A DNA stretch of 5,878 bases from a virus (taxonomy: Duplodnaviria; Heunggongvirae; Uroviricota; Caudoviricetes), in IMG/VR virus record IMGVR_UViG_2681813274_000006. The stretch is one strand, 5' to 3'. The notes under the pieces are model-generated. The model searched no databases. It worked only from the letters and a program-made list of their open reading frames with translations, and was not told where the DNA came from. This document shows positions 1 to 5,878 of this stretch, piece after piece. The position numbers were made by a program, and so were the translations under genes. Every line of letters begins with the position of its first letter. The first letter of the stretch is position 1.

Positions 1-570
1 AAACACTATCAATAAGTTGGAGTCATTACCCGATATCCTGCTGAGAACATAAACACCCACGGATCGAGGCGTACGCTATCATGTTGCTACCACACTGACA
101 TGTTTTAAAAAATGCAATAAGACATTGTATCTGANNNNNNNNNNNNNNNNNNNNNNNNNNNNNNNNNNNNNNNNNNNNNNNNNNNNNNNNNNNNNNNNNN
201 NNNNNNNNNNNNNNNNNNNNNNNNNNNNNNNNNNNNNNNNNNNNNNNNNNNNNNNNNNNNNNNNNNNNNNNNNNNNNNNNNNNNNNNNNNNNNNNNNNNN
301 NNNNNNNNNNNNNNNNNNNNNNNNNNNNNNNNNNNNNNNNNNNNNNNNNNNNNNNNNNNNNNNNNNNNNNNNNNNNNNNNNNNNNNNNNNNNNNNNNNNN
401 NNNNNNNNNNNNNNNNNNNNNNNNNNNNNNNNNNNNNNNNNNNNNNNNNNNNNNNNNNNNNNNNNNNNNNNNNNNNNNNNNNNNNNNNNNNNNNNNNNNN
501 NNNNNNNNNNNNNNNNNNNNNNNNNNNNNGCCGGGTTTTGTGATGACCGGTTACGCCAACCCTGTACGTC

Positions 571-2731: not shown

Positions 2732-2769
2732 CCGCAGCACGTTCTTGCTTAAGACGTGCTACGGTTTCC
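2732..2769 (+). terminator. Candidate intrinsic terminator 8 nt after the methyltransferase stop
   Basis: CCGCAGCACGT (2732-2742) / ACGTGCTACGG (2754-2764) forms an 11-bp stem with one mismatch and an 11-nt loop, followed by TTTCCTTT. The left arm is identical to that of the hairpin at 1553. Confidence 0.45.
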
Positions 2770-3027
2770 TTTACGATTTGGGGTTGCGACTTTACCTCTA
2801 TTGATAATGCATTCCGGCAGAACGTTCAAATATGAACGTACGATATTTAACTAACCGAAAAACAAAATATAGCACAGGCGAGACATTTACCATCTAAGAA
2901 AATAGTATCGTTTTTTTACAGTTAAATCAACATCTCTTCCTTAAAATGAAAACAATAAATTTCAATCCTGAAACATTTTATTTCAGCTTATNNNNNNNNN
3001 NNACGTGCTGCGGCATAATCCCAATGA

Positions 3028-3138
3028 TTACTCCCTGACAGGGTTCGTAGGCCACTCAATATCAGGTGCAGTTGATGTATCAACACGGTTCAGCAACACC
3101 CGATACTTTTTCTAGGCTTCCACCACCAGCACGACAAG
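3028..3138 (-). pseudogene. Second copy of the lambda-type tfa 3' end (about 27-35 codons), fused to the pin remnant
   Basis: Minus-strand translation of 3111-3028 gives [27 protein letters not shown]. It is about 90% identical at nucleotide level to 1575-1685 and is preceded by an in-frame TAG (3114-3112) where the other copy has TGG (Trp). Confidence 0.7.
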
Positions 3139-3354
3139 ATGCCGCATACAGTGCCCCAGTCAGTCCAGTTTTCAGACAACCAGTGCGTCACCTTTTTGAA
3201 GGCGCTTTAAAGCACGTTTTAATCCAGGTCGGCCTGTCCTTGTTCCGCTTAATTTATCTTCAAATATTTGTTCATATCCTGCACAAACAAGAGCGTTTCG
3301 TTGCAGGTCTGTATTCTGGTCATTTGTTGATACCCTTACATAGCCAATCAGCAC
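3139..3354 (-). pseudogene. pin: Pin/Gin/Hin-family serine DNA invertase, N-terminal remnant with in-frame stop codons
   Basis: From GTG 3354: (M)LIGYVRVSTNDQNTDLQRNALVCAGYEQIFEDKLSGTRTGRPGLKRALKRLQKGDALVV, then TGA (3174-3172) where Pin proteins have Trp, then KLD, a second TGA (3162-3160), then LGHCMRH. The catalytic-serine motif YVRVSTxxQ is intact. The remnant stops after about 70 codons instead of the roughly 185-190 aa of intact family members. Confidence 0.85.
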
Positions 3355-3408
3355 GCTGAATCTCCCGTCCAAAAGCACAAATCATGCCATGCAGGCCAGA
3401 AACCGCCA

Positions 3409-3434
3409 TTATCTAAAACCTCGGTTTACGAGAA
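3409..3434. other. gix/pix-type inversion crossover site
   Basis: TTATCTAAAACCTCGGTTTACGAGAA: 26 bp made of two imperfectly inverted 12-bp half-sites around a central dinucleotide. It closely matches the Gin/Hin/Pin crossover consensus as I recall it (TTATCCAAAACCTCGGTTTACAGGAA). It lies between the invertase start and the tail-fibre variable cassette, as in Mu and e14. Confidence 0.6.
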
Positions 3435-4193
3435 CTCGGCACAAGCGGGGAGAAAATACCGTTACTCAGTACAGCGAATACCTGGACTAATCGACAAACA
3501 TTCAGCGGTGGCCTTTCTGGTGAACTATCCGGCAATGCTTCTACAGCTGCAAAATTAAAAACTGCCAGGAAAATAAGCAATGTGGCTTTTGATGGTTCCT
3601 CCGATATCACATTAAAAGCAAGTCATGTTGGTGCGTTTGCCTTAGGGAAAACAGGAAGCACCGTTGCGAATGATAAAGCAGTTGGATGGAACTGGAGTAG
3701 CGGAGCCTATAACGCAACTATTAGTGGTGCATCAACGTTAATTATTCATTTTTATATGGGAGAAGGAAGTTGTCCTGCAGCTCAGTTTCGGATTAATTAT
3801 AAAAATGGCGGTATTTTTTATCGTTCAGCCCGTGATGGTTATGGTTTTGAAGCCGACTGGTCCGAATTTTACACCACCAGAAAACCTTCAGCAGGAGATG
3901 TTGGTGCACTGCCGTTATCTGGTGGTCAACTGAATGGTGCACTGGGTATCGGAACATCCAGTGCTCTTGGCGGTAATTCGATTGTATTGGGTGATAATGA
4001 CACGGGCTTTAAACAAAAAGGCGATGGTAATCTGGATGTTTATGCTAATAACGTCCATGTTATGCGCTTTGTCTCCGGAAGCATTCAAAGTAATAAAACC
4101 ATAAATATTACGGGACGTGTTAATCCCTCGGATTACGGTAACTTTGATTCCCGCTATGTGAGAGATGTCAGACTTGGCACACGAGTTGTTTAG
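3417..4193 (+). CDS. Tail-fibre C-terminal variable-domain cassette; promoterless, with the frame opening inside the crossover site
   Basis: The frame is open from the TAA inside the crossover site (3414-3416) to TAG 4191-4193 (259 codons). The track calls only the GTG at 3582. The product (...LLSTANTWTNRQTFSGGLSGELSGNASTAAKLKTARKISNVAFDGSSDITLKAS...) is Gly/Ser/Thr/Asn-rich like phage tail-fibre distal domains. There is no ATG or ribosome-binding site at the 5' end, consistent with expression only after inversion joins it to a constant region. Confidence 0.7.
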   Translation, partial: NLGLRELGTSGEKIPLLSTANTWTNRQTFSGGLSGELSGNASTAAKLKTARKISNVAFDGSSDITLKASHVGAFALGKTGSTVANDKAVGWNWSSGAYNATISGASTLIIHFYMGEGSCPAAQFRINYKNGGIFYRSARDGYGFEADWSEFYTTRKPSAGDVGALPLSGGQLNGALGIGTSSALGGNSIVLGDNDTGFKQKGDGNLDVYANNVHVMRFVSGSIQSNKTINITGRVNPSDYGNFDSRYVRDVRLGTRVV

Positions 4194-4196
4194 ACC

Positions 4197-4343
4197 ATGA
4201 AGAAAGGCGTGATGTATGAAAAATCAGGCCATGTAATCACGGGGCTTGGTATTATCGGTGAAGTCGATGGTGATGATCCGGCAGTATTCAGACCAATACA
4301 AAAGTTAATTAACGGAACATGGTATAACGTATCGCAGGTATAA
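4197..4343 (+). pseudogene. Detached tail-fibre C-terminal tip (48 codons), separated from the cassette by an in-frame TAG
   Basis: Same frame as 3417-4193, with only TAG plus one codon between them. Its product ...[39 protein letters not shown] aligns with the contiguous C-terminus of the minus-strand fibre ([39 protein letters not shown]). Confidence 0.5.
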
Positions 4344-4345
4344 TC

Positions 4346-4999
4346 ATGCAGCATTTAAAAAACATTGTCGCAGGTAATCCAAAAACCGTTGAACAATACC
4401 AGCTAACAAAGAATTTTGATGTTATCTGGTTATGGTCCGAAGATGGAAAAAATTGGCATGAGGAATTAAAANNNNNNNNNNNNNNNNNNNNNNNNNNNNN
4501 NNNNNNNNNNNNNNNNNNNNNNNNNNNNNNNNNNNNNNNNNNNNNNNNNNNNNNNNNNNNNNNNNNNNNNNNNNNNNNNNNNNNNNNNNNNNNNNNNNNN
4601 NNNNNNNNNNNNNNNNNNNNNNNNNNNNNNNNNNNNNNNNNNNNNNNNNNNNNNNNNNNNNNNNNNNNNNNNNNNNNNNNNNNNNNNNNNNNNNNNNNNN
4701 NNNNNNNNNNNNNNNNNNNNNNNNNNNNNNNNNNNNNNNNNNNNNNNNNNNNNNNNNNNNNNNNNNNNNNNNNNNNNNNNNNNNNNNNNNNNNNNNNNNN
4801 NNNNNNNNNNNNNNNNNNNNNNNNNNNNNNNNNNNNNNNNNNNNNNNNNNNNNNNNNNNNNNNNGACTCTCAGCTACAGCTGGGCATCATTTCCGATGAG
4901 AATAAACAAAAATTAACCGAGTGGATGCTCTATGCGCAGAAGGTTGAATCCACAGACACCTCCAGCCTGCCAGTAACGTTTCCCGAACAACCAGAATGA
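4346..4999 (+). CDS. Tail fibre assembly protein (Tfa); interior masked
   Basis: ATG 4346 lies 2 nt after the preceding stop. The N-terminus [23 protein letters not shown] is paralogous to the minus-strand tfa, and the C-terminus ...[28 protein letters not shown] is Tfa-like. 393 nt of the interior are N-masked, so length and frame continuity are assumed. Confidence 0.75.
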
Positions 5000-5001
5000 G
5001 A

Positions 5002-5032
5002 GAAGGCCCGCTATCGGGCCTTAATTTTTATT
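5002..5032. terminator. Hairpin between the convergent tfa genes; probable terminator
   Basis: GAAGGCCCG (5002-5010), loop CTAT, CGGGCCTT (5015-5022), followed by AATTTTTATT on the plus strand. The T-tract overlaps the stop of the minus-strand tfa (5028-5030). Confidence 0.5.
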
Positions 5033-5555
5033 CAGGCTTTTGTGGCCATTCAGGATTTGCCGTATCCACACGGCTGACCAGAACACTGTAGCGTTCCCAT
5101 GCTTCCAGTCGTGTGCGTTCCTCGTCTGTTGCCATATTCAGCCTGACAGCTCGTTCCAGCGGCTGGATGACTGATTCAGCTTCGGAAAGCAATGCGGCCT
5201 TTTGTGATTCGGCCTGTTGTTGCAGTTCCTGTTCTGTATATTCCCTCTTTACTACTTTACCATCCAGAAACATCCATTTTCCGTTATTGTCTGCGTGACG
5301 ATTTGCCGTAATATCAGGAACTTCAACTATGCTTAGCCCTTCAGGATTAATAGTTGAAACGTCTTTACTGACAGCAACGATGATGTTGTTCTCATCGTAA
5401 GCAATTTTTATGGTGTCTGGCTGAAAATTCTTTTGTTCCTCATACCAGTTTTTGCCATCTTCGCAAAAGAGCCATACCACGCCCGCTTTTTTAGTTAGCT
5501 GGTATTGTTCCGGTGTTTTCGGATTCCCGGCCTTAATATTTTTCAGGTGCATCAT
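5028..5555 (-). CDS. Tail fibre assembly protein (Tfa)
   Basis: ATG at 5555-5553, with GGGGAG about 9 nt upstream, starts 1 nt after the fibre stop. Product [23 protein letters not shown] ... [31 protein letters not shown] has a lambda Tfa-like C-terminal motif. The track ORF starts at an upstream TTG (5591), which I think is less likely. Confidence 0.85.
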
Positions 5556-5556
5556 C

Positions 5557-5878
5557 TTAAACACTCCCCACGTTGTACCATATTCCCCCAATCAATTTCT
5601 GAATTGGCCTTCTGGCAACAGTGTCGACAATATCATCCGCATTGCTGTTAATTGCGGCTGTTAAAACATAACCTGACGCATCGCCAAAGCCGTAGTCGCG
5701 CCATACGTTTTTATATTCAATGCTGCCAAGACGAATATCCCGAACGACATGATTATGCAGCCATGTGCTTAACCAGTTGTTTTCCCACACTGAACCATAA
5801 ATATCGCCACTAGACGCAACTTGCGCACCACTTCCCAGCGCAAATTGAGGTAGCCTGAGTTTAACGGACACTCCTTCC
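5557..5878 (-). CDS. Tail fibre protein, C-terminal part; 5' end lies beyond the window
   Basis: The frame is open to the window edge (the track M at 5871 is a GTG; codons continue upstream). The C-terminus ...[62 protein letters not shown] is homologous to the plus-strand cassette and tip, and is followed directly by tfa. Confidence 0.8.

Follow-up and report, generated by a model that had tools for sequence, protein, structure and literature searches.

Fate of a tail-fibre switch beside a dead gin-type invertase stump in Escherichia coli and Shigella sonnei

Does a dead invertase gene lock the tail-fibre segment that lies beside it? The question is raised by a 5,878-nt stretch of Caudoviricetes DNA (IMG/VR virus record IMGVR_UViG_2681813274_000006; called the window here), in which the gene of a serine DNA invertase, interrupted by in-frame stop codons, is located next to mirrored tail-fibre cassettes. 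An initial annotation, made from the sequence alone, took the gene for a Pin-family invertase that had recently decayed by nonsense mutation. It concluded that, with no recombinase in cis, the switch is probably locked unless a paralogous invertase acts in trans.

The essentials of the locus were already known, from the publication on E. coli EC958 in 2014 and from RefSeq/PGAP annotation. The present analysis adds the order of the decay events, a census of segment orientations together with the exchange of half-sites, and the loss of the switch caused by IS600 in S. sonnei.

Anatomy and decay of the invertase stump

The window is a draft scaffold that runs from one insertion sequence to another (Table 1), with four runs of N that mark scaffold gaps. 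The first 30 bases are, by their terminal sequence, the right end of IS1; an IS1 transposase gene is located directly upstream in the sequences L008 and L022–L029. The IS3-family element at the right end is presumably IS600, again by its terminal sequence, and the IS element in L008 encodes ORFs of 100 aa (HTH_Tnp_1) and 272 aa (rve).

At least one contig of the scaffold is out of place. In the finished chromosomes window position 2764 is joined directly to 3014, with an 11-nt overlap. The contig that covers 1889–2991 is uninterrupted in L011–L013, and its methyltransferase protein is identical to the copy in L011 and differs by 2 aa from the copy at the trp locus. The contig comes from a paralogous methyltransferase module next to ipaH and was misplaced. 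IS-bounded draft scaffolds of S. sonnei can thus hold a wrong paralogous contig.

Table 1. Positions of the features in the window, with the basis of each assignment.
Feature	Position	Strand	Basis or remark
IS1 right end (…AAACACTATCAATAAGTTGGAGTCATTACC)	1..30	+	Window starts inside it
Scaffolding artefact, 227 nt and an 11-N gap	2765..3002	.	Not beside the stump in finished genomes
3′-terminal tail-fibre-assembly (tfa) gene fragment, fused in frame to the stump	3028..3126	-	Direct repeat, alignment, PGAP
gin/pin-type serine DNA invertase stump, codons 1–76	3127..3354	-	Translation, Pfam, alignment to intact genes
Second in-frame TGA, codon 65	3160..3162	-	Arg65 (CGC) in intact relatives
First in-frame TGA, codon 61	3172..3174	-	Trp61 (TGG) in all intact relatives
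Presumptive Fis-bound recombinational enhancer inside the stump	3270..3333	.	Position and homology
gix-type crossover site, 26 bp, TTATCTAAAACC TC GGTTTACGAGAA	3409..3434	+	Regex scan; matches EC958 Phi4_3prime
Headless variable tail-fibre cassette Sv	3417..4193	+	Translation; Pfam gp37_C
Tail-fibre-assembly gene of Sv	4346..4999	+	Interrupted by a gap (4472–4864); 177 aa in finished genomes
Mirror-image tail-fibre-assembly gene tfa′ of Sv′, 175 aa	5028..5555	-	Pfam Caudo_TAP, E = 1e-36
Alternative cassette Sv′, C-terminal remainder cut by IS600	5557..5845	-	Homology to intact Sv′ ends at 5845
IS3-family element (presumably IS600), left end (TGAGGTAGCCTGAGTTTAACGGACACTCC...)	5846..5878	+	Window ends inside it

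The stump is read on the minus strand. In translation from 3354 to 3040 it begins with a GTG start codon and has VLIGYVRVSTNDQ at the N terminus. Its first 60 codons are open, with the catalytic Ser9 located inside the motif YVRVSTNDQ, as the initial annotation had described. After repair of the stops, 80 residues match the Pfam Resolvase profile PF00239 with an E value of 9e-22 (residues 3–77, covering profile positions 2–86 of 145). Together with its upstream region, from the G-segment boundary onwards, the stump has 91–94% DNA identity to the gin genes of Mu, D108, SfMu, P88 and P884B11. With the intact gene for a 199-aa “recombinase family protein” in a P2-like E. coli prophage, the identity is about 95%. 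The resemblance to invertases is far beyond chance, and the earlier view of a homologous gene rather than a chance ORF stands.

The Pin-family label placed the stump in the right family but is loose, and the alignments point to “gin-type” as the more accurate term. A “PinE-like” label was also considered and dropped: pinE has only about 75% DNA identity, measured against the Phi1-type invertase gene, as compared to 91–94% for the gin genes. Pin of the e14 P segment in E. coli K-12, though not the closest relative, belongs to the same family and serves a fibre switch of the same type. Functional complementation is known among Gin, Cin, Pin and Hin.

The overall arrangement is similar to that of the G segment of Mu, where the invertase gene is also located just outside the crossover site and beside mirrored Sv-U and U′-Sv′ cassettes. 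Mu-type Gin and the stump have the same N-terminal protein sequence, Ser9 included. However, Mu Gin is an active protein of 193 aa whose gene is followed by com and mom, whereas the stump has 76 codons and two stops. Its host element is a lambdoid prophage remnant, unlike that of the Mu-like gin genes.

Homology to invertases continues in the same frame past the two TGAs, as had been claimed, but only to codon 76 (approximately position 3126), and codons 61–76 are markedly more diverged than codons 1–60. After codon 76 the frame enters the final ~25 codons of a tfa gene. The 3′ end of tfa is present twice in the window, at 3008–3125 and at 1581–1698, as a direct repeat with 90% identity. The fusion junction is located at about 3122–3131, within a CTGGTGG microhomology. 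The third stop of the frame, a TAG at 3112–3114 (codon 81), lies in the fused fragment and corresponds to a Trp codon of tfa (LEAWNKYR → VEA*KKYR). In finished genomes, PGAP annotates the stump as “recombinase family protein, incomplete, missing C-terminus” and the adjoining sequence as “tail fiber assembly protein, missing N-terminus”.

Of the features of a serine invertase, the stump retains the N-terminal catalytic motif (YVRVSTxDQ, with the nucleophilic serine). About 115 codons are absent. The catalytic domain, about 100–130 aa when complete, is cut short, the oligomerisation helix E is missing, and the tfa fragment takes the place of the C-terminal helix-turn-helix (HTH) DNA-binding domain (HTH_7, PF02796). 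In addition, the frame is interrupted at codons 61, 65 and 81. The stump is a pseudogene derived from the gin group and not a functional family member, and no protein made from it can recombine DNA. The initial annotation was right to call it a pseudogene, and the decay is worse than it had supposed, as the gene is also truncated and is flagged by PGAP. Since helix E and the HTH domain are deleted, reversion of both TGAs could not restore the enzyme. Read-through of the TGAs, or their recoding as selenocysteine, was rejected because the C-terminal half of the invertase is absent. A functional 60-aa peptide was rejected as well, as it would be a fragment of one α/β domain that is gathering mutations.

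The stops are not sequencing errors, a possibility that the initial annotation had itself raised, since the same lesions recur in the fetched copies of the stump and across independent assemblies. A 28-mer that contains both TGAs and a 31-mer across the fusion junction are present in all fetched copies except the diverged L007; the copies are those of EC958, NCTC86, R6, an O25b:H4 contig, three IMG/VR contigs, seven further NCBI contigs and eight finished 4.8-Mb chromosomes. A 331-nt query (3110–3440, the stump with its flanks) is matched at 99% identity or above by 384 finished E. coli genomes. The window itself, being a gapped scaffold with at least one misplaced contig, could lead one to suspect that the stops or even the whole arrangement are artefacts of draft sequencing and assembly. 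We consider the chance of this negligible, however, as the stump contig (3003–4471) is 100% identical to the eight finished chromosomes, and PacBio genomes are among the independent assemblies that share the 28-mer and the junction.

The order of the lesions is indicated by L007, a contig of a MAG mislabelled as Bacillota, in which the copy of the stump is 96% identical to that of the window. This contig was the single hit when genome contigs were scanned with a 38-mer that the stump has in common with intact paralogues. It shares the fusion junction and the codon-65 TGA with the window. At codon 61 it keeps TGG, at codon 27 it has TGT (TAT in the window), and its fused tfa fragment has TGG where the window has TAG. 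Since L007 has the junction and the second TGA yet TGG at codon 61, the truncation is older than the first TGA. The comparison points to the truncation and Arg65→TGA as the first events, with Trp61→TGA, Cys27→Tyr and the TAG of the tfa fragment arising later, on a stump that was already dead. An old deletion joined codon 76 to the 3′ end of tfa and removed helix E and the HTH domain, and point mutations accumulated after it, Arg65→TGA being the earliest.

The course of events in the initial annotation was a different one: a full-length invertase was recently killed by two nonsense mutations, and the missing cis recombinase locks the switch. Both TGAs are real, as it had noted, and they fall at conserved Trp and Arg codons. 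However, the gene ends at codon 76 in a fusion to the tfa fragment, and this truncation preceded the first TGA, which argues against recent nonsense decay as the inactivating event. We regard this course of events as very unlikely, and the orientations of the segment described below weigh against its second part.

The segment of Phi4 in Escherichia coli

The stump belongs to a decayed lambdoid prophage located in ompW, next to trpA, which is Phi4 of EC958. The order of the locus in EC958 is trpA, an ompW fragment, ash, rha, a DUF4376 remnant, a tfa fragment, a class I methyltransferase gene, a second tfa fragment, the stump, a crossover site, Sv, tfa, tfa′, Sv′ and a second crossover site. Beyond the second site are the constant part of a lambdoid side tail fibre and lom, which is split by ISEc12. 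The layout in NCTC86 is the same, followed by lom and J.

The element in the window and EC958 Phi4 are the same. They share both TGAs, the tfa fusion, the 26-bp site and the neighbours (methyltransferase, Rha and the trpA side), with 99.4% identity over 3003–3700. The stump is EC958_1582, which has been described as a truncated Phi4 invertase with the C-terminal HTH domain missing (PMC4134206). In contrast to the window, EC958 Phi4 has kept the distal site, the constant part, lom and J, and inversion of its 3106-bp segment occurs in culture. In the S. sonnei version to which the window belongs, the left end is occupied by IS1 and everything beyond 5845 has been removed by IS600.

The crossover site in the window is identical to the EC958 site Phi4_3prime, which Table 3 of Forde et al. 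2014 lists as ccgccaTTATCTAAAACCTCGGTTTACGAGAA, corresponding to window 3403–3434 (PMC4134206). The match to the Mu record, at its annotated G-segment boundary, begins at query base 12, which is window position 3429. Between the crossover site and its stop codon at 4191–4193 the Sv frame is uninterrupted, and in the window orientation it has neither a start codon nor a constant part. In E. coli R6, the same Sv cassette is fused to the constant part, which gives a fibre of 941 aa.

The window contains the mirrored pairs of fibre cassette and assembly gene that are typical of an invertible segment, with an inverted repeat between 4346–4470 and 5431–5555. It has a single gix-type site, as compared to the two inverted 26-bp sites that are present in the E. 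coli relatives EC958, R6, NCTC86 and L020. The E. coli version of the segment has all the features of an invertible fibre segment, and only a working cis invertase is missing.

Both orientations of the segment are found in E. coli. Two junction queries of 698 nt, each with 427 nt from the stump side and 271 nt from inside the segment, were compared with 5,426 finished E. coli genomes, requiring a match over at least 80% of the length. The window orientation is present in 239 genomes and the flipped orientation in 143. Both sets are mostly ST131 (EC958, 4/1-1, 4/4 and p4A versus JJ1886, 4/0 and p11A). In GCF_001874485.1, the orientation in the chromosome (CP015085) is opposite to that in a spurious 32.8-kb contig (CP015087); this “extrachromosomal” contig spans the trp operon and the tail region of Phi4, from the tape measure gene to the ompW remnant. 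In two cases, one DNA preparation gave both orientations.

The same stump is therefore found beside both orientations, and in E. coli, contrary to the claim, the segment is not locked by the absence of a cis recombinase. That this is seen even within single DNA preparations, as also reported earlier (PMC4134206), counts further against a switch locked by recent nonsense mutations. As a separate observation, the orientation in strains 4/1-1 and 4/4 is opposite to that in 4/0; the kinship of the three is known only as ST131.

The two states of the segment can be compared at the crossover sites of EC958 and R6. The inner half-sites, GGTTTACGAGAA and GGTTTACAGGAA, are exchanged exactly at the central crossover dinucleotide. 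The outer half-sites are constant (TTATCTAAAACC towards the stump, TTATCGAATACC towards the fibre gene). The difference between the states is exactly the one that a serine invertase produces. Each orientation contains an intact fibre ORF, of 968 aa in one and 941 aa in the other.

PacBio reads of one EC958 culture show both orientations of the Phi4 segment, from which inversion in trans was concluded (PMC4134206). The Phi1 invertase was proposed as the enzyme responsible because the Phi1 and Phi4 sites are nearly identical (PMC4134206); in our comparison the Phi1 sites, TTATTTAAAACCTCGGTTTACGAGAA and TTATCGAATACCTCGGTTTACAGGAA, are 1–2 bases off those of Phi4. Action in trans on heterologous sites has moreover been reported for invertases of the Gin/Pin family (PMC4134206).

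The intact Phi1 invertase, WP_000905061.1, is encoded in EC958 at 957668–958267 by a full-length ORF of 199 aa, and an identical gene (100%) is found in strain 4/1-1 of ST131, among many other strains. It is similar to the stump (~95% DNA identity) but is full-length and located at another locus. In the E. coli lineages that have the distal site, the 3.1-kb segment still inverts, and an intact paralogous invertase must act on it in trans. By the published inference, the Phi1 enzyme is the best candidate for this role. The initial annotation had named trans action as the one way in which the segment could still flip. In at least one ST131 genome, WP3-W18-ESBL-07, a megablast search showed no close invertase paralogue.

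Loss of the distal crossover site in Shigella sonnei

The lineage of the window itself is S. sonnei. Eight finished chromosomes carry window positions 3003–4471 and 4865–5878 with 99.9–100% identity and at most one mismatch; the findings on S. sonnei chromosomes refer to these eight, which were fetched, and 12 further similar places were left out. In addition, the fusion ORF at 5557–5871, created by the insertion of IS600, is found on 585 contigs with the source name Shigella sonnei, whose usual length is 5.3–5.7 kb.

The order in the eight chromosomes is trpA, IS1, ash, rha, tfa fragment, methyltransferase, stump, crossover site, Sv, tfa, tfa′, truncated Sv′ and IS600. After IS600 come DUF1327, a holin, a NanS-type esterase, a second IS600, a DNA methylase, antiterminator Q and RusA, which represent the lysis/Q region.

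The junction with IS600 is located inside Sv′, at 5845/5846, and the homology of the window to the intact Sv′ of L019 and L020 breaks off at 5845. The eight chromosomes lack what lay beyond the junction in Sv′, together with the distal crossover site and the constant 5′ part of the fibre gene; lom, J and every head and tail gene are missing as well. IS600 has no target-site duplication at its flanks, which suggests that an IS-mediated deletion or rearrangement has taken place here.

Within ±10 kb, only one gix-type site is present in each of the finished S. sonnei chromosomes, and the segment has the same orientation in 8/8. The population check for both orientations that had been proposed earlier gives a single orientation in S. 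sonnei (eight finished chromosomes and three IMG/VR contigs), as compared to two in E. coli. The S. sonnei segment is a frozen relic, the state of the window's own genome beyond IS600 being taken from the 99.9–100% identical chromosomes. What freezes it is the lack of a partner site and of a fibre gene to switch, regardless of the invertases that the cell may contain.

The description of the switch as locked is therefore correct for the S. sonnei lineage, but the reason is the loss of the distal site at IS600 and not the dead invertase. A single orientation in all fetched S. sonnei sequences would also be expected if nonsense mutations in the invertase had locked the switch; here, however, loss of the second crossover site is sufficient alone.

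The best explanation of the whole, to which we assign a probability of roughly 0.85, is that the gene is the dead gin/pin-type stump of Phi4, beside a segment that is still flipped in trans in E. coli and has been frozen by IS600 in S. sonnei. As a discovery the locus carries little weight, and its value lies in caution. A dead invertase beside an invertible segment does not mean that the segment is locked, as paralogous invertases with near-identical sites can drive the flipping. Conversely, a switch can be frozen by the loss of a crossover site outside the stretch that is being read.

The crossover site and putative enhancer of the stump

Two Fis-like 15-mers, both matching a weak motif, are located in the stump: GTATCAACAAATGAC at 3333–3319 and GTGCAGGATATGAAC at 3284–3270. 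They start 49 nt from each other, with ~95 bp separating the proximal one from the middle of the crossover site. By comparison with the hin Fis-site sequences, they are at positions homologous to the two Fis sites of hin, and they may constitute a recombinational enhancer. The Gin enhancer is reportedly located “within the invertase gene” (title of Kahmann et al. 1985). The Mu GenBank record has no enhancer annotation, and a literature search for enhancer positions found nothing. In the Hin system, the enhancer is about 100 bp from hixL (PMC3798978).

Codons 8–29 of the stump form the region homologous to the hin/gin enhancer, and they are spared by the deletion endpoint at codon 76. The C27Y change falls inside the distal Fis-like site. 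The surviving cis-acting pieces would then be the crossover site, which is directly observed, and the putative Fis enhancer, which in this family is within the first ~100–170 bp of the gene. As the deletion endpoint would spare both elements, inversion in trans could still work.

It is conceivable, though in our judgement improbable, that selection keeps the stump, in lineages with both sites, as a cis module of site and enhancer with which foreign invertases go on flipping the fibre cassettes, and that this module may recombine with the gix sites of other prophages. The position of the deletion endpoint relative to the enhancer-homologous codons and the crossover site (PMC3798978) would fit such a role, as would the persistence of flipping in ST131 and the in-frame joining of the segment to a different constant fibre part in L019 (see below). 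On the other hand, the copies of the stump are near-identical, so that their conservation is uninformative, and the stump gathers mutations, one of them, C27Y, in the distal Fis-like site. The Phi4 prophage of ST131 is itself defective, with lom split by ISEc12, and a benefit from switching is doubtful. The evidence from L019, finally, comes from one draft contig, in which a repeat may have led to misassembly.

Even as a dead remnant, the stump could leave an orphan gix site and putative enhancer that stay a live substrate, with the cassettes flipped by the invertases of other prophages and with occasional recombination between prophages. We offer this as a speculative extension that is more probably wrong than right by a wide measure. 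If true, recombination at the orphan module would create hybrid tail fibres and inter-prophage chromosomal rearrangements.

A hint of such recombination comes from the contig L019 (GCA_019732345.1), which shares IS1, rha, the methyltransferase, the stump and the segment with the window; its hybrid junction was found in none of the finished E. coli genomes. The distal site in this contig is a hybrid, TTATCGATAACG TC GGTTTACAGGAA. It joins Sv′ in frame to an e14-like constant part, giving an ORF of 476 aa that is followed by ymfQ/Mu-gp48-like baseplate genes. Fibre genes that adjoin ymfQ in E. coli share 99.6% identity with the constant part of this ORF.

Composition of the draft scaffold

The window is an entire draft scaffold bounded by insertion sequences, of a kind that is found in hundreds of Shigella sonnei assemblies. 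It begins within the right end of IS1 and runs out inside an IS600-type element, at that element's left end. The middle contig, which is bordered by gaps on both sides, originates from a paralogous copy of a methyltransferase module located next to ipaH. Its methyltransferase protein is identical to that of the ipaH-adjacent copy and differs by 2 amino acids from the true copy at the trp locus. The contig also carries ipaH upstream sequence, which is absent beside the invertase stump in finished genomes, and the first gap is flanked by identical contig ends of 56 nt.

Positions of the scaffold features in the window
Feature	Position	Remark
IS1, right end	1-30	scaffold start
Contig ends flanking first gap	1760-1815 and 1889-1944	identical
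First gap	1816-1888	
Middle contig	1889-2991	
Class I SAM methyltransferase	2056-2724	
ipaH upstream sequence	2765-2991	
Second gap	2992-3002	
Stump codons 61-76	3127-3174	
IS600-type element, left end	5846-5878	scaffold end

The class I SAM methyltransferase, located between 3′ fragments of the tail-fibre-assembly gene tfa, is a repeated, moron-like module (also at 10001-12628 in loci L011-L013). The second copy, in L011-L013, is directly upstream of an ipaH-type effector gene (LRR plus NEL); the prophage remnant that holds it is a different one, located close to yehU/yehT and mlrA.

Divergence and older copy of the invertase stump

The stump differs from gin genes at only 3-4 of 60 residues up to codon 60. 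Divergence jumps immediately after this point, with 9 of the 16 residues in codons 61-76 being different. These codons probably resemble a PinR/PinQ-type allele (GRSMRHLVVLVEEL), a likeness that would suggest a mosaic ancestor of the stump, rather than divergence by decay alone.

An older version of the stump and its tfa fusion, 96% identical, is located in a 2.5-kb contig (L007:1-330, JAEWTL010000008.1), where it adjoins an AT-rich GGDEF-type gene. The contig belongs to a metagenome-assembled genome labelled Bacillota, and is almost certainly enterobacterial DNA that was placed in the wrong genome bin.

Fibre cassettes and rearrangements in related assemblies

In one assembly (L019:5130-6560; GCA_019732345.1, JAACXM010000015.1), the variable cassette Sv′ is linked in frame, through a hybrid crossover site, to a constant fibre part. 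This part belongs to an e14-like element and adjoins ymfQ. The hybrid junction has no match among the finished E. coli genomes searched, and it stems either from an invertase recombining two prophages or from chimeric assembly.

In four other assemblies (L015-L018; GCA_9001xxxxx, contigs FUDD, FUDI, FTYV and FTTI), the stump, methyltransferase and fibre cassettes occur two or three times, with the orientation alternating from copy to copy. These look like the product of an assembler confused by a population of mixed orientation, rather than true duplications.

The fibre gene of Phi4, the same prophage in E. coli EC958, is one intact ORF of 968 amino acids (L001:8474-11380, minus strand) that runs from the constant part through the crossover site into Sv′. 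PGAP nevertheless labels it "missing C-terminus" and assigns nothing to 8458-9884, an artefact that the invertible segment has caused in the annotation.

Finished S. sonnei chromosomes differ in the part of the prophage that lies beyond IS600: its early, Q and lysis block has been inverted or rearranged in L025 and L027 relative to L022-L024. IS600 copies are present at the breakpoints, which indicates that IS600-mediated rearrangement of this prophage remnant is still ongoing.
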